Part shown: one piece after another, positions 10,290-24,000 of the stretch
Numbering within the stretch: the first letter of the stretch is position 1
Layout: every line of letters starts with the position of its first letter
From: an uncultured Nitrososphaerota archaeon
Lineage (GTDB): Archaea; Thermoproteota; Nitrososphaeria; Nitrososphaerales; Gagatemarchaeaceae
DNA: 24,000 bases
Direction of reading: 5' to 3'
NCBI GenBank assembly: GCA_963703285.1
Contig: OY969807.1
Coordinates: 583,577 to 607,576 of the forward strand
Position numbers and translations under genes: made by a program
The notes under the pieces: generated by a model
What the model was told of the DNA's origin: nothing
The model's input: the letters and a program-made list of their open reading frames with translations, nothing else
The model's database searches: none

Positions 10290-12152
10290 TCAAATGCCGT
10301 TGGAGAGCCAGGGCAGGTTCAGCGGCGTCTGCACAGGTATACTGGACTCGCCCTCGAGCGAGTTCAGAATATCCCCGTACAGCGCCCTGTCACTCTTCTT
10401 CGCGGCCTTCGAGAGCTTCATGATGATCAGCTTCGGCGTGCTAGACCCGATGTGGTCGAACTTCGGCTGCCTGTCGACGATGAGCTCTCCCTCTCTGTCA
10501 AGACCCTCCGCCTCTATCCCGTCGACCCTGATCGAAAGCTTCACGTGAGGAAGGGTCTCCCGGGCAAGGTGCGTCACCAGGAGGAGGAGGCTGCTGCCCG
10601 TCGCGGCCGTGTTCACTATCCCCGCCAGGATCCTGCCCGCGGCTCCGGGTTCGGTCAGGGCCTCGAATTCGTCCATGAGGACGAGCTTCCTGCGCCTGTC
10701 GGCGAAGACGGGGATGAGCGAGCCGAGGGCCTGCTCGAGGCTCCCTATCTTCCGCGTCACCCTCCTCCTGAACAAATAGATGGGGATGGGGGCGACCTCG
10801 GCGCTCTCGCAGGGAACCGGCAGGCCGAGGAGCGCGAGGATGTGAACTGAGGCGAGGGTCGTGAGGAGCGTCGTCTTTCCCCCGCTGTTCGCTCCCGTCA
10901 GCATGACGACGTTCCTTGGCTTGGCCCCAGCTATCTTCGTCGACCTCGTACTGCCCAGCGCGTAGCTGACAGGCTGGACGACCGCCCTTCTCCCGCCCTC
11001 AATCTCATCCTTCGTCAGGAAGAGGTTGCGGCCATTTACGAAGGCCATACCCTCGTTTCCGATAACAGGCACTGTGAGGGTGTACTCTTCCATCATGGAT
11101 GCTACCGCCAGCATCTGGTCGAGAGAGACTACTCTCTCAACCGCATCATCCACCACGACCCAGTACCGCTTCAGAGACGACTCTGTCCTGGCGAGCTTGG
11201 CTGCCCTCTCCTCCTTCTGTCGTCCCTCCCATTTCTGGACGACTCTCCGCCTTCCAGCCCTCTCGAACTCGAAAGGAATCGACAGCCCCTCGAGTGCTGC
11301 CCTTCTGACCTCGCTCTCCTCCTCCGAGTCCATCCTGAGAGTGCTGACCACCTCCTCGACCTGCTCTTCGACTATCCTCCTCGCCCGCTCTTCGTCAACC
11401 CCTCCCTTTCGGAACTTCTCGTTGATCAGAATCTCCGCGTCGGACAGGACCCCCTCCGCATCCTGGACTCCCTTGCTCTCATGCTCCTCTAGGGTCTTCA
11501 TTACGCTCTCCAGAATGCTCCCATCGGTGTTCCTGAAGAACGACCTCAGCGTCACAACCTCGTCGAAGCTTCCAATGATCGAATGAGCCGCCTTGATCAT
11601 GCGCCTGCGTTTGATGAAGTAATCCAGGGTGTCGGATTCCGTCCTCGAGGACGGCTTCTTTCCGGACGGAGCATCGAAGGAAACCTCGGCGAGCACACCC
11701 CTTAGCTCATCGAGCCTTCCTAGCTGCCTCAGCTCCCTCATGATGTCCGTTCCAGTCAGGCACGCGCTCAGCCTGCTCTGGATCGCCTCCCTGTCCAGCG
11801 CTGGCGCAAGCAGCGAGAATCTGTTCTTGGCGAGCTTGGACGAGGCGTGCTCCGAAAAGAGCGAGAGTATGTCCCTGGCAAGCTTTCTGGCGTCCGGCGT
11901 CCTGAAGACCCTCCTCTCCCGGACACCCGAAGCCTCTTCGCTGTGCGCGCGCATGAGCTGGTACGCCTTCTTCCTCCCTGTCGCAGCCATCTCGGCGAAG
12001 CCATCGACGTCAGCCAGCCTGACCCTGCCCAGCAGATCCCGGGCCTTCTCTTCGGAGACGGTCTGGAGGTTGACTCCGAGACGACCGGCGAGCTTGAGTA
12101 AGTCATCGTACTTCATCGGCGCCCCCCGCCTCGACAAATCTGAGACCGACAT
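10290..12152 (-). CDS. MutS-family ATPase (MutS2/MutS5-like), with a helical N-terminal region and MutS domain V but no Smr or mismatch-recognition domain
   Basis: Walker A is MLTGANSGGKTTLL. The Walker B/MutS signature is KLVLMDEFEALTEPGAAG. The conserved TH is in LLLVTHLARE. The N-terminal 400 aa are helical and charged, like a core/clamp region. Confidence 0.85.
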   Translation of the reverse strand: MSVSDLSRRGAPMKYDDLLKLAGRLGVNLQTVSEEKARDLLGRVRLADVDGFAEMAATGRKKAYQLMRAHSEEASGVRERRVFRTPDARKLARDILSLFSEHASSKLAKNRFSLLAPALDREAIQSRLSACLTGTDIMRELRQLGRLDELRGVLAEVSFDAPSGKKPSSRTESDTLDYFIKRRRMIKAAHSIIGSFDEVVTLRSFFRNTDGSILESVMKTLEEHESKGVQDAEGVLSDAEILINEKFRKGGVDEERARRIVEEQVEEVVSTLRMDSEEESEVRRAALEGLSIPFEFERAGRRRVVQKWEGRQKEERAAKLARTESSLKRYWVVVDDAVERVVSLDQMLAVASMMEEYTLTVPVIGNEGMAFVNGRNLFLTKDEIEGGRRAVVQPVSYALGSTRSTKIAGAKPRNVVMLTGANSGGKTTLLTTLASVHILALLGLPVPCESAEVAPIPIYLFRRRVTRKIGSLEQALGSLIPVFADRRRKLVLMDEFEALTEPGAAGRILAGIVNTAATGSSLLLLVTHLARETLPHVKLSIRVDGIEAEGLDREGELIVDRQPKFDHIGSSTPKLIIMKLSKAAKKSDRALYGDILNSLEGESSIPVQTPLNLPWLSNGI

Positions 12153-12306: not shown

Positions 12307-13545
12307 CTATGCAGCCTTGTACCTGAGCAAAGCAGCAAAACCGCCAAGAGCGTTGAGTTTTTCCTTCTCCTCGGACTCGGAAGAGATCACTTCAACCTTG
12401 GCATCGGTTGAGCTAGCGGCATCTTCCAAGACATCCACGATGTCTCTATCTTCCACCTCGTACTCTAGCCCATCGCACTTTCCGCATCGTACTGCCAGTT
12501 CCTGCTCGGTGGTTTCCATCTTCTCATCTTCATGCGCCAGTCGTGTTCTTGACTCCCCGCACTTTTTGCATGTCAGGATAATCTCGGTCAGGCCGGTGTT
12601 ATCCGCGACTAGAACGGTGTTTGCAACTCCATTCCTCACAGCGTCCAGCACCTTATCCAATCCCTGAATTGCCAACCCGTCTTCCTTGGCCATGTCTGCC
12701 TCCAGCCGTTGCAACAACTTGGCATCCTCAGCAGAATGAATCCTTTTCAGCGCCTCGGCTGATTTCTCAAGAGCTTCTTTCACCCCCTCTTTTCCTGAAA
12801 GCGCTGTGTTCACCTGGGGAAGAAGGATGTTCTTGAGCTCGTAGCGAAGGAAATCTTCTTTCAGAAAATCCTCCTTGGTAAAGCCCGGCCCTCCGACGAT
12901 CAGTGCCGTAACTCTTTGTTTTGTGATGAAGGCCTCCGTCGCGTAATCCGCGACCCTGTGAAAGTAATACGTGAGCTCCATGTCGCGCTCTCGCTCATAC
13001 CTTCTCTGGCTCCATCCGCCCTTGTCGGTCTTGCCAGGAATGCCGGAGGTGATGTGGTCAACTATGTCGAGTCTATCGCCGTTCAGGACACCAAATCCTG
13101 CCTCGTCAGCATCCATCGCGATTACTCCGACGACCCTTTCTTCTCGGAGCATCTTCCTGAGCGTCGCTAGATTGAAGTGATCGTCGATATCGAAAGTAAA
13201 CTCGGTTAGGGGTTCTGGCGGGATCAACACTTGAACCTCCGCGCCCTTTGCGCCTACATTGGCGGCAGCGAATATCGCGAGGCCATTGTCTGGAATCTCG
13301 CTTCGCGTCTTGAGAAGATGAATTATCTCCGAGAGTTCGTCTCGAACCTCTCGTCTTGCCTCTTGAGATTTGATTTCTGGAGAATCTAACCTTTCCTTGA
13401 GGAACGCATCCAATTCCTCAATCGTCTTACCCCTCGGTATGTAGAGCGATACAAGGTCTCTTGCCGTTCCCTCTTTGCTCGACAAGGAAGCCATGAGCTT
13501 CCTCATCTTGTACTGCTTTAGAGAATTCGTACTCGTTGCAAGCAA
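12307..13545 (-). CDS. aRF1/eRF1-family paralog with degenerate decoding and catalytic motifs
   Basis: The full three-domain aRF1 layout is recognisable: GTARDLVSLYIPRGK, VGVIAMDADEAGFGVL, LIVGGPGFTKEDF, the zinc ribbon CKKCG...CGKCDG and the C-terminal LGGFAALLRY. However, GGQ reads GGW (KGGWSQRRYER, 13012-13020), NIKS reads EIKS (13366-13377) and YxCxxxF reads FDIDDHF. Confidence 0.85.
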   Translation of the reverse strand: MLATSTNSLKQYKMRKLMASLSSKEGTARDLVSLYIPRGKTIEELDAFLKERLDSPEIKSQEARREVRDELSEIIHLLKTRSEIPDNGLAIFAAANVGAKGAEVQVLIPPEPLTEFTFDIDDHFNLATLRKMLREERVVGVIAMDADEAGFGVLNGDRLDIVDHITSGIPGKTDKGGWSQRRYERERDMELTYYFHRVADYATEAFITKQRVTALIVGGPGFTKEDFLKEDFLRYELKNILLPQVNTALSGKEGVKEALEKSAEALKRIHSAEDAKLLQRLEADMAKEDGLAIQGLDKVLDAVRNGVANTVLVADNTGLTEIILTCKKCGESRTRLAHEDEKMETTEQELAVRCGKCDGLEYEVEDRDIVDVLEDAASSTDAKVEVISSESEEKEKLNALGGFAALLRYKAA

Positions 13546-13840: not shown

Positions 13841-14089
13841 ATGAGCGAATTGGTTTCGATGGATAAGAAGGGCAGGCTTGTCTTGCCAAAAAAAGTCAGG
13901 ACAGAAGCGCGTATTGATGTCGATAGAAAGCTGGTTGCCAGAGTGATAGGCGTAGGACGCGTGGAGTTGTCCGATCCGGATGTCCTATCGACGAAGGCGC
14001 AAGAAATCGGGAAAAAGAAACTGGCAGGGTGGAGGGAAGAAAAGCACGAGTCAAGCAATTACCTCTACGAGTCGGCGAAAGGGAAATGA
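13841..14089 (+). CDS. vapB: AbrB/SpoVT-family antitoxin (VapB-like)
   Basis: MDKKGRLVLPKKVR is the SpoVT-AbrB swapped-hairpin signature. Its stop overlaps the PIN gene start (ATGA at 14086-14089). Confidence 0.85.
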   Translation: MSELVSMDKKGRLVLPKKVRTEARIDVDRKLVARVIGVGRVELSDPDVLSTKAQEIGKKKLAGWREEKHESSNYLYESAKGK

Positions 14090-14472
14090 GACTTATCGAC
14101 ACCGTCGTGCTGATTGGCTATCTTAACCCCCTGGACAAGGAGCACAGGCCATCAGTTGGACACCTTGAGAAAGTCAATTCAGATGAGGACGTTTTTGTTC
14201 CAAATCTCTCATTGGTAGAAGCTGATCTCGTCATGAAGATCCGAGGGTATTCTCACTCCGAGAGGGAAACCTCCTGGCGCGCGCTTGAAAGCAAGATTCC
14301 TCAATCGAAGATAATGGTGCACTCAGTGTCTTCGATTTACTCGGCATTGCAGCTCCAGGAACAAGGAATGGACTATTTCGACTCTCTCATCACATCACTC
14401 GCTCTGGAGACTAGCTCTATCGTAGTGACCACGGACAAACAAATTGGAACAGCGGTGAAGACGGAATGGTAA
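14086..14472 (+). CDS. vapC: PIN-domain toxin (VapC-like)
   Basis: MRLIDTVVLIGYL carries the first acidic residue. Further PIN acidic positions are in LVEADL, YFDSLITS and VVTTDKQ. The start chosen is ATG 14086 rather than the ORF-track 14029. Confidence 0.85.
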   Translation: MRLIDTVVLIGYLNPLDKEHRPSVGHLEKVNSDEDVFVPNLSLVEADLVMKIRGYSHSERETSWRALESKIPQSKIMVHSVSSIYSALQLQEQGMDYFDSLITSLALETSSIVVTTDKQIGTAVKTEW

Positions 14473-14724: not shown

Positions 14725-15129
14725 TTGGCAGAAGAGATCAAGTATCCCTCTATGGACCAGGTTTCGAGGCTCTATAATCGAACGATTGACGCGACAGGCG
14801 GTGAACGCGGATACCTCAGCAAGTCTAACCTGGACTACCTTTTGGACACGGTCCGAGATGTTGGGGAGAGGCTGCCGAGAAGACGGGCCATTCTGAAGAA
14901 GGCAGCGTTTTTACTGTACAACATAATTGTGATACACCCGTTCCTTAACGGCAACAAGCGAGCCGCTTATGGACTTGTGGAGCTATTCTTGAACTCTAAT
15001 GGCTACAAGGTTTCTCCCGAGACCAATGAGGCATACCTATTCCTCATTGAAGTTGCATCTGGGAAGATTTCAGAGAGCGAAGTCGAAACGTGGATAGCAA
15101 TGCATTTAACGGAGCTGACAGCAGAATGA
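14725..15129 (+). CDS. doc: Fic/Doc-family toxin (death-on-curing type)
   Basis: The Fic core motif is HPFLNGNKRAAY (HxFx[D/N]GNKR). The size is about 130 aa. The start is TTG 14725 or ATG 14752. Confidence 0.85.
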   Translation: MAEEIKYPSMDQVSRLYNRTIDATGGERGYLSKSNLDYLLDTVRDVGERLPRRRAILKKAAFLLYNIIVIHPFLNGNKRAAYGLVELFLNSNGYKVSPETNEAYLFLIEVASGKISESEVETWIAMHLTELTAE

Positions 15130-16470: not shown

Positions 16471-16731
16471 ATGTCAGCCAAGCGAACCGTGGGAGCGAAG
16501 GGCCAGGTTGTAATCCCCAAGGACATGCGAGACCAGCTTGGGATCTCTCCTGGTTCAGAGATAGTCTTCGACCTCAGGGACGATAAGATTACGATCCGAC
16601 CCGGGAGGGACCCGGCGAGCGAGGTCGAGGCGTACCTCTCGGTGATAAAGGACAAACTGAAGAAAGAGGTCGACCTAAAGAAGATCATCGAAGAGGAGTC
16701 GTTTGTCGCGAATGATCTACCTGGACAGTAG
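16471..16731 (+). CDS. vapB: AbrB/SpoVT-family antitoxin (VapB-like)
   Basis: MSAKRTVGAKGQVVIPKDMRDQLGISPGSEIVF is an SpoVT-AbrB domain. It overlaps the following PIN gene by 20 nt. Confidence 0.85.
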   Translation: MSAKRTVGAKGQVVIPKDMRDQLGISPGSEIVFDLRDDKITIRPGRDPASEVEAYLSVIKDKLKKEVDLKKIIEEESFVANDLPGQ

Positions 16732-17119
16732 CATCTTCCTTTCCGCGGCTCTCTACGATCCAAAAGCTTCGGCATCCGCAAGTAGAGCCAGGGCGGCCCT
16801 CAAGCGACTCCCCAGCGGGGAGATTGAAGCCTGCACGGCGACGCTCACCTGGGACGAGGTTGTCTGGACCGTTCGAAGGCTCGTCGGCGCAAAGGAGGCT
16901 CTCGACCAGGGAAGGGCCCTCCTACGCCTCCCCCGGCTCAGGCTCCTCTCGGTGGACTCGGATGCCCTCGCGAGAGCCCAGGAAATCGCGGAGGAGGACC
17001 ACCTCAAGCCCAGGGACGCGATACACGCCGCAGTCGCCTTGAACAACGGCGTCAGGGACTTCATGAGCTTCGACGGCGAATTCTCCGATGTCAGGGGCGT
17101 CAGGAGAATTGAGCCGTAA
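16712..17119 (+). CDS. vapC: PIN-domain toxin (VapC-like)
   Basis: The PIN acidic positions are in MIYLDSSIFL, TWDEV, PRDAIHAAVA and SFDGEF. The start chosen is ATG 16712. Confidence 0.85.
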   Translation: MIYLDSSIFLSAALYDPKASASASRARAALKRLPSGEIEACTATLTWDEVVWTVRRLVGAKEALDQGRALLRLPRLRLLSVDSDALARAQEIAEEDHLKPRDAIHAAVALNNGVRDFMSFDGEFSDVRGVRRIEP

Positions 17120-17213: not shown

Positions 17214-17795
17214 ATGAAGACAGCGAAAGTCGCAGCAATCGGCGCAGCCTCCATCTTCGCGGTGGTAGCGCTGCTCCTCGCAGTCCCGGCAATGGCAGCC
17301 ACGCAGAACACATCCCTGATAGCCAACACATCCACCACGGGCGCGACCACCTCGGTGGTCCCCGCCCCGACGACCCTCTCGCCCGGTCAGACCATAACCT
17401 TCACCAGCACCACAGGTGCCTGGAAGGTCATAGCGTCCCCGTCCGCGGTCGAGAAGGTCAAGTCAGGTCCGGCGTCCGGCACGATGACCCTCACCGTGAC
17501 AGGCGCCTACAAGGGCGGGTACGCCCTCTCCCTGACGTCGGGCTCCGTCTCAATCAACGGGACGACCTACGCCTTCGGACCCGGCTCGGCTGAGATGGGC
17601 CCGCACCAGGCTCACCTGGTCGGCCAGGGCACCCTCGCCACAACCACCGCCTCCGCCACCCGAGGCTCGTTCCTCTTCGCGGCTGGCGCGCACGCCAACT
17701 TCCAGGGGTCGACCTACAACACACTGCGCCTAGACGTACAAGTGAACGGACAGGAGTACGGCGTCCTCCTCTTGGTGACCGCAACGGTCTCCTAG
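17214..17795 (+). CDS. Secreted Thr/Ser/Gly-rich beta-type protein with a Sec signal peptide
   Basis: The N-terminus MKTAKVAAIGAASIFAVVALLLAVPAMA-ATQ is a signal peptide with an AxA cleavage site. The mature part has low complexity and is T/S/G-rich. No family recognised. Confidence 0.7.
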   Translation: MKTAKVAAIGAASIFAVVALLLAVPAMAATQNTSLIANTSTTGATTSVVPAPTTLSPGQTITFTSTTGAWKVIASPSAVEKVKSGPASGTMTLTVTGAYKGGYALSLTSGSVSINGTTYAFGPGSAEMGPHQAHLVGQGTLATTTASATRGSFLFAAGAHANFQGSTYNTLRLDVQVNGQEYGVLLLVTATVS

Positions 17796-17822
17796 GGGAC
17801 GCCCCTCCTTCCTCCCCTTTTT
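17795..17822 (+). terminator. Short GC hairpin plus T5 run
   Basis: GGGG-ACG-CCCC at 17795-17805 is followed by a pyrimidine tract ending in TTTTT (17818-17822), directly after the stop codon. Confidence 0.35.
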
Positions 17823-17932
17823 GTGATGAAATACCAGTGCTCTCAAGGCTATAGACACGCGAGATGCGCCACCGGACGCGAATCCAATGGCGACTTCGAT
17901 GGTCTGGAAACCGGCGGAGCGCGTCGGCTGCC

Positions 17933-20243
17933 CTAGGAAAGCGGCGCCGTGAACGAGCGCGAGAACGTCAGCCCTATCGCCGTGGTAACGGTGACCGTGT
18001 AGATCTGCCCCGGGATCCAGTCGAAGGACTCCGCCATGATTATCTTCTGCCCGGGGCTGAAGTAGAAGTTGGAAGCGAAGTTGGAGGTCGAGCGCGGCGC
18101 CAGGCCCCGTTATCACCAGCGAGAGCAGCTTGATGTCCGTGTTGCTTAGGTTCTTGAGTTCCACGACGGCCCTGGTCTCGTTGAAGGTCTGGATGACGGC
18201 GTAGATGGAGACCTTGACGGTGTAGGGCGTGAGCGGCTCCGTGCAGGCGTACGCAGGCGCGGGGCAGGCGGACGACGTGGCGTTTATCCTGATGTTCAGG
18301 TCCCCAGTCTCAGGCACCCCGACCTTCGTGTAGGTCGTCGAGTTGACGTAATACGCGGCCTGTGGAAGGGGTATGACGGTGTCTATCACGCTGGCGTTGG
18401 TGGTCGAGGCGGACCCGAACTGCGCCCAGAGCACGGGGTTGTAGACGAAACGCGAGTTGTCCGAGACGAACGCGTAGATCGTCGTGTTCTGGGGCGCGCT
18501 CGTCATGTTGACACCGAGCTCGAGCCCCTGTACCTGGTTGTAGCTCAGCCCGGTCGGAAGCTCGAAGGTCTGCGACCCGTAGTAGGTCGCGGGGTCCGGC
18601 TTCAGAGCTAGCCCCACGTTGTCTAGGTAGACCGACAGGGCGGGAGGATAGCCCGCCGACTCGGGGAACTGGCCCGGAACCGTCATCGCCACAGATATCG
18701 TGAGGGTGTAGGTGCCCGCGTACCATCCTCCTCCCGCGGTGGTCCACGACACGGGCGGGATGAAGCAGGCGTCGCTCGTGACCCACCCGGAGGGCCCGAA
18801 GTCGTTCTGGACGGTGGGGTTCACGTAGTAATAGTCGCTGGGGCTCGCGCCGCACGAGGTCCCGCCAATCGGAAGTTCGATCGTTCCCTTCGGTCCCTGG
18901 AGGTAGACCTGGTAGAGGACGAGGGAGTCGCGGGGGGCGTTGATCGACGCCATGTCGCTGTCCCAAGTCAGCGTGCAGCACTTGGACCCGGCGATGTTGG
19001 CCGCCGTCGCCTGGTCGAGATAGAAGGACGTGGTGAAGTCCGCGGTGCTCGTGAGCTGCTGGCCGTCCGAAATCGGCACCGAGTTGAACGATGGCTCGAA
19101 GGTCGCATACAGGCTCCCCGGCGCGCTCTCCGAGGACGCAACGAGCGTGTTGCTGTCGTAGCCCGCGGACATCCCGCTGGGGGTGAGGGGCTGCGACGGG
19201 GCCGGGTTGATGGCGGCGATGGACGTTCCCGGCCCGAGCGCAACGATGATGAAGTTATCGTTTCCCGTTGGGGTTGGAGCGGGGTTGAACGCCGAGCCGG
19301 TCGTTATCGTCATTCCGCCGTTGCCGATGATCTCCAGACTTTGGCCCATCGCTGGTCCTGAGGTGTACTGAAGGAAGTCACCAAACCACTGGGCCGCCGT
19401 CCAAGTTGCTGCTGCGTCAGTTAGAATCGTGGGCGAAGCTGCCGTCGTGGTACCACTGAAGAGGGGGGAAGCCACCGTGGCGTTGACAGTTGCTATGGCC
19501 GTGTCGGTGAACGGGAGCATGCTGTTCTTCAGCCAAGACACGACGACGGTCATGTAGAACGTCCCGTGGGCATTTGGAACGCTCGCGGACCAGTCGAATG
19601 TCTGACTCCCACCGTTCGGCCCTATTTCGAAGGGAAGGCTCGAGAGCCACGTGATGTTATTGCCCGTTACGTTCGGCGGGCCGGTCGCGAGGAACGTGGA
19701 GCCCCAGTTCACGGTCGTCGGTTGCGGGACCGGGACCGTCCACTGCGAGTCCACAAGGAGCGAGACCTTAGCGATCCCGTACGGCGAGCCGAGCGGATCA
19801 CCATTCGTCACGGTTAGCGTAAACGGGACTGTGGAGGGCGAAGAGGAGGAGGGGTAGATGTTCTGCGGGCTCGTCTGGACAGAGCCGGTGTCGCTCACTG
19901 GAGTGTAGCTGCGCGACGTCGTCCATCCGTCCATGTTCGACGTGAAGTTCATGTTGCTGATGGGCAGGATCGGGTTCTGCTGGTTGTTCTGGCTCAGCGT
20001 GACGGAGCCGGTCGTCGCGTAGTTGAACGAGCTGTACGAAGTCAAACCGCCGAACACGATGTCCTGTACGCCAACCGCCTGCGCCTGGGCGCTGAGCGTG
20101 CTCGCGTTGGACGTGTGCTGACCGTCCACGTAGCTGTTGAAGGTCCCGAACATCGTCGCGAGGGCGCCGACCATCAGCACGACTATCAGGATGAAGAAGA
20201 CCGCGCCGACGATGTTGGCTATCCCTGATCTTCTCGCTCTCAT
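17933..20243 (-). CDS. Large extracellular protein with an archaeal type IV pilin-like (class III signal) N-terminus. The reading frame is interrupted near 18085-18109.
   Basis: The start chosen is ATG 20243 (MRARRSGIANIVGAVFFILIVVLMVGALATMF), 2 nt after the upstream gene's stop. The body is T/S/N/P-rich. After ...LVITGPGAA the ORF-track frame decays into Arg/His/Leu-rich sequence and overlaps the convergent gene. A one-base shift gives STSNFASNFYFSPGQKIIMAESFDWIPGQIYTVTVTTAIGLTFSRSFTAPLS, stopping at 17933-17935. Confidence 0.75.
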
Positions 20244-20245
20244 TC

Positions 20246-21127
20246 TCAAATCGCCGCGAGGTATCCGGTGAAGTACAGCAACAGCAGCACGGCGAGCGGC
20301 ACGAAGACCACGGCCCAAAGGACTTTGTTCCACCTTAAGACCTTAGCCCCGTCCAGGGGCATCACGGGAAGCATGTTGAAAGCCCCCAGGAAGACGTTGA
20401 AGTACGAGCCGAGGAAGCCGGCGAGGAAGAGATAGGGGTTGTTCAGGTCCAGCCCGACCACATACAACGGCACGAAGAGGACCGCGATGATGACGTTGGT
20501 AAGCGGACCGGCGAATGAGATTATCCCGTTCTCCTTGGTCCTTATGCCGTAACCTTCTATGTAGGTAGCCCCCGGCGCGGCGAATACGAAGCCGGTGAAT
20601 GTCGAGATGACGAGCGCAAGCACAAGGCCCTGTGGCCACATCCGGAACTCCGCCTGGAATCCGTATCTCTGCGAAGTAAACTTGTGCATCAGCTCATGCA
20701 GTACGAACCCCGCGCCTACAGTCCCGAGCGCCATCACGAGCACCAGAGCTGTGGGTATGACCGTATGCGGCGAATTGGGGGCGCAGGTCAGAGCGACCGG
20801 GTTGCAGACGCCAATGACGTAGGCAAAGCCTTGGATGAGACCCCCGGTTTCTGCAATCGTGAACGCGGTCCCCAGGGCCAGCCATGCGATGATGATGTCC
20901 CTCACCTCGTGGCGCGTGAATGACATGGATATCGGCCTCCGGCCCGCTGAGACCGCGGCGTCGCTCCACGAGAAGGTGGAGGCGGTCGTCTCGGCCACCG
21001 GCCTACGGGAGAGGTCTCCGGTGCACCTGTGCGACTCGGGGAGCCTGTGTTCCCCGCAGAACACGCCGCCGCAGTAGTTGCAGACGAAGGGCAGGGACTC
21101 CTCCTTGCCGCAGTACTGACAGTTCAA
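20246..21127 (-). CDS. AN1-type zinc finger fused to an M50 (site-2 protease-like) membrane metalloprotease
   Basis: The N-terminus CQYCGKEESLPFVCNYCGGVFCGEHRLPESHRC matches the AN1 Cys/His pattern. The HExxH motif is in a TM helix (FVLHELMHKF), and the second M50 motif is FNMLPVMPLDG. There are multiple TM segments. The start is TTG. Confidence 0.85.
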   Translation of the reverse strand: MNCQYCGKEESLPFVCNYCGGVFCGEHRLPESHRCTGDLSRRPVAETTASTFSWSDAAVSAGRRPISMSFTRHEVRDIIIAWLALGTAFTIAETGGLIQGFAYVIGVCNPVALTCAPNSPHTVIPTALVLVMALGTVGAGFVLHELMHKFTSQRYGFQAEFRMWPQGLVLALVISTFTGFVFAAPGATYIEGYGIRTKENGIISFAGPLTNVIIAVLFVPLYVVGLDLNNPYLFLAGFLGSYFNVFLGAFNMLPVMPLDGAKVLRWNKVLWAVVFVPLAVLLLLYFTGYLAAI

Positions 21128-21172: not shown

Positions 21173-24000
21173 CTAGATGACGCAGAACTTCACTGCGTAC
21201 TGTGCGCCCGATGTCTGGACCCATGTGAGCCCCACAGTGTTCCCTGAGTATGATATCGTCACGCCGCCAACGAGGCCCGACACTCCCGGAACCTCGACGG
21301 CCTGGGACCACGACACTGCGTAGTTCGGTGCCGCGCCCACTGTGCCCACCTGGAACGCGAGCTGGTCGTCGATGCCGTACGCGACGTAGAGGCTGCTCCC
21401 TCCGAACGCCATGGAGATGTGCCACGAGTGGTTGACCACGGCGTTGGCCGGGATCACGGAGATCGAGAGTGCGGTGGGAGCCGAGAAGCATCCGCCGTTG
21501 GTCCCTGAGTAGCCCGCGGGGCAGGCTCCTCCGGCTGGGTTGTAGTTGAATGTGTAGAACTGGACGTCAGCCGAGCCTCCCGCGGCAGTCGCCAGGCCTG
21601 CGAAGAAGACCACGTCCGTTCCCGCTACCGGCATCACCACGCCCTGCTGCTGTTGGGTGTAGATCTGGACGCCGGACCAGCTCGCGGGGAGGTCGCTGCA
21701 GAAGCCGGACGCGAGGCTGCCGCCGAGGCAGTAGGTGTTGGACATCGTGTACCCGTGGTCGAAGACCGTTATGTGCGGATACTGGGGCGTGTTACCGACC
21801 GTGAAGGTCGCGGCGACGGCATCAGGCATCACGTAGAGCTCTGAGTGGACCTGGGAGTCGGGGCCGGTGTAGACCGCGTGCAGCTGGACGTCGCCAATCC
21901 CGCCTATAGCTGCCGGAATCTTCCAAGTCGTGAGCGTGAGCTGCCCTACCTCGACGTGCCACATCAGGTTGGAGTCGAGAGCGGGGATTGTGACCCAGAT
22001 GCATCCCTCACCCGGGGAGACCGTCAGACACTGCGCCGACGAGTCGACGTAGATGTTGGGTGACCCGGCCGTGGTGAGACCCGGCGCCGTGTGCACCATC
22101 AGCATCTGGACAGGGCCGAGGCCGCAGTTGCCTGAGCACGCGGTCCACGAGATGGACGCGCCGCCAGCGTTGGCCACGACGGTACCGGAGGCAAAGTAGA
22201 AGCCGCCCGTGAACGAGGGTGAGAGCAGCACTAGGTAGACGTTGTTGTTGTAGTTGGCGACGGCGAAGGAGTACCCCTGGTCGATGCCGTTGACGATCTC
22301 CGTGGCCGGCCCCCACGAGTTGCCGGTGTTGTCCGTGCTCGCGCGGTAGACCAGGTTGGTCCCGTCCGAGTACACCACGAACCAGTGGTTGTCGGCGAAG
22401 AAGAGGGCGTTCTGGCTCCCGTAGGTTATCGCGTAGGCGCTCGTCGTGAACCCGATGGTGGTCACGCTCGGCGAGATGATGGTCAGCTGGTATGTTGAGC
22501 TCGACTGCAACCCGTCAGAGTCTGTCGCGGTCACCGTCCACGTGTAGACACCGAAGGGCGCGTTGGGCGCTATCGTAATCAGCATCGTCGAGGAGGCCCC
22601 GCTGGCGCTCGCCGGGAAGCCATTTGAGGTGTAGATGAGCGTCACTCCTGAAGGCAGGGCGCTGTTTGACAGCGTGATGACGCCGCTGCCACCCGTCGCG
22701 GTTATTGAGCAGCCCACCTGAGTTCCGACTCCCGCCGTCTCGGGCGTGCAGACGCTTATGGAGAGCGGTACAAGGAAGTTCGCGGTCGCGGTCTCAGGTC
22801 CGTTCATGGTGATCTGGATCGAGGGAGAGTCGCACGAAGGTGCGCAGGACCACCCTGACCAGTCTTCGAAGACCGCTCCGGGGGAGGTTGCGGTCGCCGT
22901 CAGGGTCGGGATCGTCCCCCCGAAGTACCACCCGGGCGACGCGCCGGCGCTGCTGGGGGGGGCGGCCGCGACCGTGCCCGCCGAGATCGGGTTAATCACC
23001 ACCGTCAGGAGGTACTGTACCTCGAATGGCACTGTGACTGTGGCCGAGGGGTCCGCGGCCGACAGGGTTACCGGTGTGGGGACAGGGCCCGTGTAGGCGT
23101 ACTGCGTCCCCGCAGGCAGCCATGCCTGCGGCGATGGGACGGTGTAGGTGTAGGACCCCACCGGAGCTGAGCTTATCACTATGTCCTGTGAAGTGCTCGA
23201 ACACGTGTAGGTGGTTCCCGAGTCGAGGACGCACCCGGAGGATCCCGGATTCGGTATCGCTGACGGGGCGGTAACCTGCACGGACCACGAGGGCCCAATC
23301 AGATTCATGCCTGTCTCGACGAATGCGAGTCCCGTGACCAGCGTGAAGCTGGCCGTTATGGTCCCGGTCCCGCTTATGACCGCGGTCGTGCTCGAGGACC
23401 CGGGCACTTCTATCAGGATGCTCCCGGTTTCACTCCACCCTCCGAAGCTGTAGCCGCCGATCCAGTTCCCGATGATGCTCACGCCGGGGAGACCCGCTGC
23501 CTCCCAGACCGGGGTTGCAAAGGGCACGGCCATGCCGCCGGCCGTTATCGAGCCCGTCCCCACGGGCGAGACCACGAAGGTCACCTGGAACTGGTGGTTG
23601 TAGACTATCGGGTCGGTGACCTCGTTGCTCTCGTAGATCGAGGGCCAGGAGCTTAAGCCGGGCTGAACCGTCCACTGCTCCGTGGGGAACGCACCGAGTA
23701 TAGGATCGTTCACGAAGACCTGCTTCGTGGCGTCCAGCCAGACGACGTTGGCCGTGAGGTTCAGGAGGTGGGCCTTGTCGACGCCGAGCGAGTAGTAGTT
23801 TATCGTCACGCTGCTGGGGGCACCGTGGATCGCGCTGCCGTCGGAAGTTTCGTACACGAGCGTCTGTTGGAACTGGTGGTACCATACTATCGACGGGTTC
23901 GTAACGATGTTGGTGGCCGTGATGGTCCAGGATGCGGTTGGCGTGTACCAGCGCTCTCCCGAACCGCCGACGTAGGTCTGGGTCACGCTTGCCGTGGTGC
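21173..24000 (-). CDS. Very large secreted/surface protein (over 940 aa, 5' end outside the window) with InlB-B-repeat-like modules and a C-terminal BNR/Asp-box-containing beta-rich region
   Basis: The frame is open through 24000; the ORF-track start at 23986 is an internal GTG. Repeated modules follow the pattern Y.L/V.V...P...G.......Y..G....L.A.....F..WSG.......T...TA.F, for example QYLLTVVINPISAGTV...FEDWSGW...ATANF and QFQVTFVVSPVGTGSI...FGGWSETG...ITASF. An Asp-box-like STDNTGNSWGP is also present. Confidence 0.8.
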   Translation of the reverse strand, partial: TTASVTQTYVGGSGERWYTPTASWTITATNIVTNPSIVWYHQFQQTLVYETSDGSAIHGAPSSVTINYYSLGVDKAHLLNLTANVVWLDATKQVFVNDPILGAFPTEQWTVQPGLSSWPSIYESNEVTDPIVYNHQFQVTFVVSPVGTGSITAGGMAVPFATPVWEAAGLPGVSIIGNWIGGYSFGGWSETGSILIEVPGSSSTTAVISGTGTITASFTLVTGLAFVETGMNLIGPSWSVQVTAPSAIPNPGSSGCVLDSGTTYTCSSTSQDIVISSAPVGSYTYTVPSPQAWLPAGTQYAYTGPVPTPVTLSAADPSATVTVPFEVQYLLTVVINPISAGTVAAAPPSSAGASPGWYFGGTIPTLTATATSPGAVFEDWSGWSCAPSCDSPSIQITMNGPETATANFLVPLSISVCTPETAGVGTQVGCSITATGGSGVITLSNSALPSGVTLIYTSNGFPASASGASSTMLITIAPNAPFGVYTWTVTATDSDGLQSSSTYQLTIISPSVTTIGFTTSAYAITYGSQNALFFADNHWFVVYSDGTNLVYRASTDNTGNSWGPATEIVNGIDQGYSFAVANYNNNVYLVLLSPSFTGGFYFASGTVVANAGGASISWTACSGNCGLGPVQMLMVHTAPGLTTAGSPNIYVDSSAQCLTVSPGEGCIWVTIPALDSNLMWHVEVGQLTLTTWKIPAAIGGIGDVQLHAVYTGPDSQVHSELYVMPDAVAATFTVGNTPQYPHITVFDHGYTMSNTYCLGGSLASGFCSDLPASWSGVQIYTQQQQGVVMPVAGTDVVFFAGLATAAGGSADVQFYTFNYNPAGGACPAGYSGTNGGCFSAPTALSISVIPANAVVNHSWHISMAFGGSSLYVAYGIDDQLAFQVGTVGAAPNYAVSWSQAVEVPGVSGLVGGVTISYSGNTVGLTWVQTSGAQYAVKFCVI

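Follow-up and report, generated by a model that had tools for sequence, protein, structure and literature searches.

Present accounts of archaeal ribosome rescue rely almost wholly on Pelota with ABCE1. Bacterial ArfB and mitochondrial ICT1 are codon-independent GGQ hydrolases that carry out peptidyl-tRNA hydrolysis on stalled ribosomes. The aVLRF-1, acVLRF-1, and Vms1 proteins are stop-codon-independent quality-control release factors (PMC6514570; 10.1101/301341); Burroughs and Aravind (2019, PMC6514570) describe the motif of aVLRF-1 and acVLRF-1 as GGxSQ and that of the Vms1 family as GxuQ, and yeast Vms1 uses GGSQ (10.1101/301341). The critical catalytic elements are the Gly-Gly backbone and the main-chain amide of the Gln, and a release factor with a Gln-to-Glu change stays active (PMC4691834). 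Here we describe a paralog of the archaeal release factor aRF1, encoded in a 24,000-nt stretch of DNA (“the window”) from an uncultured Nitrososphaerota archaeon (assembly GCA_963703285.1, contig OY969807.1, positions 583,577 to 607,576). The protein carries none of the three classical release-factor motifs NIKS, YxCxxxF, and GGQ, and it also fails a fourth defining feature of release factors, single-copy synteny.

The window protein belongs to a family of more than 1,000 sequence clusters from Bathyarchaeia, the source of most members, and from some Nitrososphaeria-like archaea. A search of 5.8 billion proteins gave 1,240 matches, of which the best 120 (53 to 100% identity) were used for the family statistics given below. 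When ~15 billion proteins were clustered at 50%, nearly all full-length variants fell into one cluster (P0049), with a few fragments and shorter members kept separate; the next full-length matches beyond this cluster are canonical NIKS/GGQ aRF1s of at most 46% identity. We found no description of this variant family in the literature on aRF1 paralogs in Bathyarchaeia or Thaumarchaeota. Annotation sources name its members aRF-1, release factor subunit 1, or peptide chain release factor aRF-1, and this label of an ordinary release factor is wrong for the family.

A Classical aRF1 Fold Without the Classical Motifs

By fold, profile score, and phylogeny, the window protein is a derivative of classical aRF1. 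It matches Halobacterium aRF1 (4af1) over the full length (1e-44) and scores 331.9 bits against the NCBIfam model TIGR03676 (cut-off 234.7). Pfam detected the eRF1_2 (2e-32) and eRF1_3 (4.5e-16) domains and did not report eRF1_1 at E ≤ 1; the N domain was aligned to aRF1/eRF1 both by sequence and by model. The AlphaFold model used here (predicted local distance difference test [pLDDT] score 81.9) was built from a 139-sequence alignment, which replaced an earlier family-only alignment that gave a poor model (pLDDT 64.6). Its nearest structures were 4af1 (template modeling [TM] score 0.73) and ribosome-bound eRF1, while Balon and Pelota were much poorer matches (Foldseek TM ~0.47 for Balon). These matches, together with the zinc-ribbon cysteines and the GGFAALLRY tail, bear out the 412-residue, three-domain aRF1-type open reading frame (ORF) described in an initial annotation of this DNA.

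The three motif positions were also read correctly in that annotation. Alignment to solved aRF1/eRF1 sequences places EIKS, FTFDIDDHF, and GGW opposite NIKS, YxCxxxF, and GGQ, with Ile at the Cys position of YxCxxxF, and MAFFT places a one-residue deletion at the NIKS Asn position in the variant family. The TGG in place of the GGQ Gln codon is read directly from the DNA, positions 13020-12991 being GGC GGA TGG AGC CAG AGA AGG TAT GAG CGA, or GGWSQRRYER. The altered motifs are common to all of the best 120 of the 1,240 homologs. The NIKS Asn is absent from 120/120, and its column is a gap in 61/61 aligned variants versus Asn in 78/78 sister canonical proteins; the YxCxxxF Cys, present in 100% of the sister canonical clade, is replaced by Val or Ile in 118 of the 120. 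At the GGQ position the residue varies (Q in 49, W in 29, S in 19, E in 15, M in 7, and A in 1).

It is very improbable that the window gene is the sole housekeeping release factor of its organism, a sequencing error, or a decaying pseudogene. The canonical copy, it is true, is known from relatives and not from the genome of the window itself; both genomes that hold the closest relatives, however, also carry one (see below). The initial annotation had named an assembly error at the TGG codon as a possible refutation, and this is ruled out because KGGWSQRRY is found in all 15 nearest homologs, which come from independent Logan, ENA, JGI, and NCBI assemblies; the 29 GGW proteins among the best 120 likewise derive from independent assemblies. 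Decay is ruled out because the family has a mean column identity of 71% with dozens of invariant columns, and its ORFs are intact. The position of the gene in a compositionally foreign island also speaks against a housekeeping role.

Conservation of the M-Domain Loop and Drift of the Reading Tip

Substitutions were counted by parsimony on the family tree of 120 sequences. Position 178, where the Gln of GGQ would stand, shows no fewer than 25 changes, which puts it at the 95th percentile of all columns, and positions 56 to 58 at the NIKS tip, the counterparts of S-N-I, show 25 to 30. There were no changes at G176, G177, S179, Q180, R181, and R182: the loop is frozen across the family as GK..KGGxSQRRYERERD, and its length is kept. 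Residue 180 is Gln in 61/61 variants versus Ala in 78/78 sister canonical proteins, which gives GGxSQ. Judged by its residues, the variant loop is remodeled rather than lost. In this respect the initial annotation needs correction, for it had assumed a loss of the catalytic signature and drawn a parallel with Pelota. Its other comparison, of the GG-x-SQ spacing with Vms1/VLRF1, is the more apt one, since Gln180 occurs in 100% of the variants and the motif is that of aVLRF-1/acVLRF-1.

Among canonical proteins, conservation is 76% in the N domain, 68% in the M domain, and 57% in the C domain; between the two variant subclades, the corresponding values are 48%, 65%, and 55%. The positions that are invariant in the 78 sister canonical proteins and changed in the variant are the Thr of the GTS loop, G54, T55, the NIKS Asn and Ile, D61, T63, H66, K111, C120, Q178, and Y249. 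The Y249 column corresponds to Tyr257 of Aeropyrum pernix, and the Tyr is lost in the variant family. In two deep-branching members, L118 (OY970286.1, a 2.68-Mb chromosome) and L136 (CAVYYP010000006.1), the NIKS loop is deleted or degenerate and the YxCxxxF region is degenerate. Both keep an identical M-domain loop, GKxGKGGQSQRRYERERDME, and a near-identical C-terminal tail, so that GK.GKGGQSQRRYERERDME and GGVAALLR[YF] are conserved even here. Because the tip and the N domain drift, the M-domain loop is fixed, and deep members do without the NIKS loop, the conserved function probably rests on the M-domain loop and the C domain and not on codon reading.

The same pattern makes it improbable that the variant is a specialized, stop-codon-dependent terminator whose reading head has been remodeled for one stop codon, a sequence context, or a stress condition. 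Such a factor could be expected to pass the curated aRF1 model, as the window protein does (331.9 bits versus 234.7), and K59, S60, the Tyr/Phe of YxCxxxF, and the new N-domain residues D54, S55, and E111 are well conserved in the family. The codon-contacting tip residues, however, are among the most variable of the protein, the N domain is its least constrained domain, and the deep members lacking an intact NIKS loop keep the remaining protein. In addition, the genes of the window end with all three stop codons, and relatives keep a canonical omnipotent aRF1.

A more serious competitor is a noncatalytic A-site occupant that silences, protects, or helps to split vacant or stalled ribosomes in a Pelota/Dom34- or Balon-like manner without hydrolysis. 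We consider this main rival unlikely. The loss of the stop-codon motifs and the absence of constraint on the classical catalytic Gln would suit it, and there are precedents: Balon, an aeRF1 fold without NIKS and GGQ, is a hibernation factor delivered by EF-Tu (10.1101/2022.11.24.517861), and glutamine-less baeRF-1 families have been proposed as noncatalytic A-site inserters (Burroughs and Aravind, PMC6514570). In Pelota, Balon, and glutamine-less baeRF-1, however, the loop has been lost or scrambled, while across the 120 variant sequences GG, SQRRYERERD, and the loop length are unchanged and a new Gln is fixed at +2. The structure model is also far nearer to aRF1/eRF1 than to Balon or Pelota.

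GGxSQ in Other Archaeal Release Factors

The shifted Gln is not confined to the variant family. Among 138 aRF1 cluster representatives, Gln is found at +2 in 21/24 of those with a non-Gln residue at the GGQ position versus 29/114 of those with GGQ intact (Fisher p = 1.8e-8, uncorrected for phylogeny). About 20 of the 138 representatives (within P0140-P0267) keep NIKS yet read GG[W/F/M/A]SQ. One Nanoarchaeia aRF1 (L194:1620-2708(-)) has NIKD, YRCDQTF, and GGFSQ, and its gene lies directly upstream of a class-I aminoacyl-tRNA synthetase gene, as does canonical aRF1. Since this protein keeps NIKD, YxCxxxF, and the canonical gene position, it suggests that a release factor can work with GGxSQ, and the Gln of GGQ seems dispensable when a Gln stands at +2. 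The apparent compatibility of GGxSQ with ordinary release factors of DPANN-like archaea would also be in keeping with the specialized terminator considered above.

Further variation was seen at the functional motifs of other aRF1 proteins. Many canonical aRF1 genes (P0121, P0122, P0123, P0125, P0128, and many others) carry inteins between GGQ and Ser (GGQ|C...HN|S) or just before the Cys of YxCxxxF; in some, both sites are filled, and the proteins reach up to 1,452 aa. Proteins resembling aRF1 are also encoded by two contigs (121 and 156 kb) catalogued as viral, L096 (IMGVR_UViG_3300044799_000154) and L097 (IMGVR_UViG_3300031999_007842). They have [D/Q]NIKS, GGQSQRR[Y/F]ERER, and a YxCxxxF-like region that includes a Cys, and their M domain is 43 to 45% identical to that of the Bathyarchaeia variant. 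A separate long-branch aRF1 homolog (P0166) with SEIKS, GGE-SA, and YNYRRNHKF groups beside the Bathyarchaeia/Caldarchaeum-type canonical aRF1 and may be an independent degenerate paralog.

Canonical aRF1 in Relatives of the Window Organism

The closest relatives of the window protein found in metagenome-assembled genomes (MAGs) are 75 to 76% identical, and both MAGs also hold a canonical NIKS/YxC/GGQ aRF1, the second copy that the initial annotation had proposed to look for. In GCA_030041355.1, the variant, P0008, which shares 76% identity with the window protein, lies on a 235-kb contig and the canonical protein (P0272; GTASNIKS, YLYRCDDHF, and KGGQSARRY) on a 215-kb contig, and the two contigs have a similar GC content at third codon positions (GC3). 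In GCA_029850555.1, the corresponding pair is MDH2901217.1 (variant, P0007) and MDH2899684.1 (canonical, P0275). Elsewhere, archaeal-type aRF1 genes were found in MAGs labeled Zixibacteria, Candidatus Acidoferrum, “bacterium,” and Pacearchaeota (P0053; L121, DATIXS010000102.1; L176, DAIDAB010000028.1; L195, JAFCGM010000012.1); these contigs are probably mis-binned, and MAG co-occurrence evidence needs care.

One genome per Genome Taxonomy Database (GTDB) species was scanned with a degenerate nucleotide pattern that represents the M-domain loop, and at least 120 matches were obtained in apparently random order. Among the matches listed, ~29 Bathyarchaeia-labeled genomes have a canonical aRF1 (ASNIKS, YLYRCDxxF, and AGGQSARR[FY]), including the complete chromosome CP070820.1 (Ca. 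Bathyarchaeum), and 7 have the variant, which was also found on the 2.68-Mb chromosome OY970286.1, labeled “uncultured archaeon.” From these numbers, the variant may be present in roughly a quarter of Bathyarchaeia species. In a metagenome search with P0130, the 2.46-Mb contig carrying P0019 was not among the matches.

We considered whether the variant is Bathyarchaeia’s own aRF1 ortholog and rejected this, as Bathyarchaeia-labeled genomes carry a P0130-like canonical aRF1 that never groups with the variant. P0124 and the intein-bearing P0121 were rejected as the Bathyarchaeia canonical aRF1, both being of the Nitrososphaerales/Thaumarchaeota type. Since canonical aRF1 is present in the relatives’ MAGs and Bathyarchaeia genomes have a canonical aRF1 of their own, we hold with considerable confidence, on comparative grounds, that the window gene is an accessory paralog of aRF1 and not the housekeeping factor.

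The gene neighborhoods agree with this assignment. Canonical aRF1 is directly followed by a class-I aminoacyl-tRNA synthetase gene, with an amino-acid-kinase-family gene and the genes for L31e, L39e, and S19e nearby. The 12 variant loci have no neighbor family in common, while the same analysis of canonical loci returned several. Thus, the view of the initial annotation that this is a paralog rather than the housekeeping factor finds support in the two relatives’ MAGs, the lack of conserved neighbors, and the freely evolving tip of the N domain. As for the noncatalytic occupant, two universal-stress-protein genes adjoin the variant at one Bathyarchaeia locus and would favor it, but no hibernation or stress gene recurs beside the variant across the 12 loci.

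Other possible partners were rejected. Directly downstream of the paralog, at 10290-12152 (-), the window encodes a 620-aa protein of which only the MutS domain-V-type ATPase is recognizable; it gives no more than weak matches, the best being to MutS2 (63 bits; cut-off 400) and to the KamC reactivase ATPase. Because ribosome collisions are sensed by MutS2 in bacteria, a conserved operon with this MutS2-like ATPase seemed attractive, but it was rejected, as neither the ATPase nor any other neighbor recurs at the 11 other variant loci. The 82-aa ORFs that lie upstream, one in the window and one in L001, are not related to each other. A link to defense systems was likewise rejected, PADLOC giving no match for the paralog or its neighbors.

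Origin and Genomic Surroundings

In bootstrapped neighbor-joining trees of 79 sequences, the variant family was monophyletic in 100/100 bootstraps. Its sister group consisted solely of Nitrososphaeria-type canonical aRF1 in 99/100 bootstraps and never of Bathyarchaeia canonical aRF1; in the full-data tree, MAGs from peat and soil make up the sister group. The KGG..RRY and DDHF signatures are common to the variant family and this sister group. In the simplest history, a Nitrososphaeria-type aRF1 (KGGQSARRY / YLYxCDDHF) was duplicated and the copy later reached Bathyarchaeia, probably by gene transfer.

In the window, the paralog forms a low-GC3 island with a VapB-like/PIN gene pair and a Doc/Fic gene (Table 1). 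The GC3 of the island genes is 0.54 to 0.59 versus 0.72 to 0.84 for the other genes of the window, which fits recent acquisition, and the island is probably a recently acquired accessory region. A further PIN gene at 16703-17119 has a GC3 normal for the host. VapBC and Doc toxins typically target translation.

The shared island raises the possibility of a toxin-antitoxin link and, with it, of a regulatory decoy that competes with aRF1, Pelota, or aminoacyl-tRNA for aEF1-alpha or the A site and thereby tunes termination, readthrough, or elongation. The conserved C-terminal tail, which is common to a/eRF1 and Pelota, would fit such a decoy. Nevertheless, we regard this explanation as quite improbable: none of the other 11 loci examined has toxin-antitoxin neighbors, the variant family has lost the Tyr on which aEF1-alpha binding depends in A. 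pernix, and the frozen peptidyl-transferase-center loop would be left unexplained.

The features of the paralog gene are collected in Table 1. The TTG start codon lies at 13545-13543, with an in-frame TAA upstream at 13557-13555; the GGAGGG stretch 5' of it may be a ribosome-binding site, its spacing to the TTG being very short. The window contains no tRNA and no Rfam match. Two large GC-rich ORFs at 17730-20333 (-) and 21173-23986 (-), of 867 and 937 aa, fall into no Pfam, NCBIfam, or PADLOC family, the sole exception being one weak InlB B-repeat-like match in the latter.

Table 1. Features of the aRF1 paralog gene and its island in the window (positions in the window)
Feature	Start	End	Strand	Basis
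Low-GC3 island: aRF1 paralog, VapB-like/PIN pair (13841-14472), Doc/Fic gene (14725-15129)	12307	15129		GC3
aRF1 paralog gene, 412 aa, TTG start, TAG stop	12307	13545	-	ORF, profile and alignment matches
C domain, residues 271-412, eRF1_3 type	12310	12735	-	Pfam, model
GGFAALLRY C-terminal tail (G401-Y409), kept in paralog family and canonical aRF1	12319	12345	-	
Zinc-ribbon insert with C326, C329, C354, C357	12475	12570	-	Four Cys present
M domain, residues 136-270	12736	13140	-	Pfam, model
GGxSQ loop G176-G177-W178-S179-Q180; TGG at 13012-13014	13006	13020	-	DNA read directly
N domain, residues 1-135, eRF1-type stop-codon-reading	13141	13545	-	Alignments and model
FTFDIDDHF (F116-F124), YxCxxxF counterpart, Cys replaced by Ile	13174	13200	-	Alignment
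EIKS (E57-I58-K59-S60), NIKS counterpart	13366	13377	-	Alignment
GGAGGG stretch directly 5' of the TTG start	13547	13552	-	Read from sequence

Proposed Function

Four things are directly supported: that the nearest relatives have the gene as a paralog, how conservation is distributed over the family, which fold the protein has, and where it stands in the tree. From them we infer how it would work, from A-site binding and codon independence to catalysis and the kind of substrate. Because the three-domain, tRNA-shaped body is kept, along with the zinc ribbon and the C-terminal tail, the paralog would still enter the ribosomal A site. Because its reading tip (NIKS, the GTS loop, and the Cys of YxCxxxF) has been freed from constraint, binding there would not depend on a stop codon. 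The GGxSQ loop would be inserted into the peptidyl-transferase center, where the geometry of the Gly-Gly backbone and the Gln shifted two residues downstream (Q180) would together provide the catalysis. The protein would then act as a rescue or quality-control hydrolase that releases peptidyl-tRNA from stalled ribosomes or from ribosomes without a stop codon. As for this chain as a whole, an accessory and mobile aRF1 paralog with stop-codon-independent A-site entry, a GGxSQ loop, and probable peptidyl-tRNA release, we regard it as evenly poised between right and wrong.

Several observations weigh against it. The trees were obtained by neighbor joining only, and no conserved partner gene at the 12 variant loci points to a rescue pathway. 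Ser-Gln also follows GGQ in 29/114 ordinary aRF1 representatives, and therefore Q180 need not be catalytic. Tyr257 of A. pernix is needed for aEF1-alpha binding (PMC3467058), and since the variant has lost the corresponding Tyr, its delivery by aEF1-alpha is uncertain. Coexistence with a canonical copy covers relatives at 75 to 76% identity, in MAGs for which mis-binning is possible. Among the matches listed in the genome scan, no Bathyarchaeia assembly has both copies, and none was sampled twice; therefore, same-genome proof of two copies is limited to the window’s own subclade.

If the proposal is true, archaeal ribosome rescue would gain a new player, a second aRF1-type factor of wide distribution that disregards stop codons but retains a peptidyl-transferase-center loop. 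This factor would be an archaeal counterpart of ArfB/ICT1/Vms1, and the “universal” GGQ motif would not be universal. It is tempting to assume that the variant family represents an unrecognized, horizontally mobile archaeal paralog for stop-codon-free peptidyl-tRNA release with a Gln shifted to +2, a shift shared with some DPANN-like release factors, but we advance this only tentatively and think it somewhat less probable than its opposite. The variable classical Gln and the fixed Gln at +2, which are also found in NIKS-bearing aRF1s elsewhere, constitute a natural experiment on the needs of the catalytic loop. There is also a practical side: if TIGR03676 serves as a single-copy marker, variant copies could inflate contamination estimates.

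Comparison With Known Systems

Classical aRF1 (TIGR03676; 4af1 and 3agk) is the nearest known system. The paralog shares its three-domain fold, zinc ribbon, GG.AALLRY tail, and M-tip Gly-Gly loop, scores above the curated cut-off, and is nested beside Nitrososphaeria-type aRF1. It differs in the deleted NIKS Asn, the changed Thr of the GTS loop, the replacement of the YxCxxxF Cys by Val or Ile, the unconstrained Gln of GGQ, the loss of the A. pernix Y257 counterpart, and its occurrence as a second, nonsyntenic copy.

With aVLRF-1 and acVLRF-1 of the VLRF-1 clade (Burroughs and Aravind 2019), the paralog has the GGxSQ loop in common, yeast Vms1 (Vms1/ANKZF1) having GGSQ. In aVLRF-1 there is an N-terminal coiled coil but no C-terminal Pelota-type domain, and in acVLRF-1 the N domain is missing; the paralog, by contrast, has all three classical domains, no N-terminal extension, and a position inside classical aRF1. 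Its score against the NCBIfam acVLRF1 model is 42.7 (cut-off 125), and canonical aRF1s score similarly. Because architecture and ancestry differ, the likeness of the GGxSQ loops is convergent.

In Pelota/Dom34 the N domain is Sm-like and nothing remains of the GGQ mini-domain, whereas the paralog has an eRF1-type N domain, matching eRF1 N-domain structures in the model, and an invariant GG loop; the Pelota model TIGR00111 gives it 70.4 bits (cut-off 177.65). Balon (Rv2629 family), like the paralog, has an aeRF1-like fold without NIKS and GGQ, and it occupies the A site. It is, however, bacterial, ~10% identical to aeRF1, and equipped with an HP motif and a lasso loop instead of a GG loop. Consistently, the Balon model NF052289 gives the paralog 41.1 bits (cut-off 320), and the Foldseek TM score is ~0.47 versus 0.73 for aRF1. 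With ArfB/ICT1, finally, the paralog would share only the proposed job; they have the unrelated bacterial release-factor fold and a strict GGQ.

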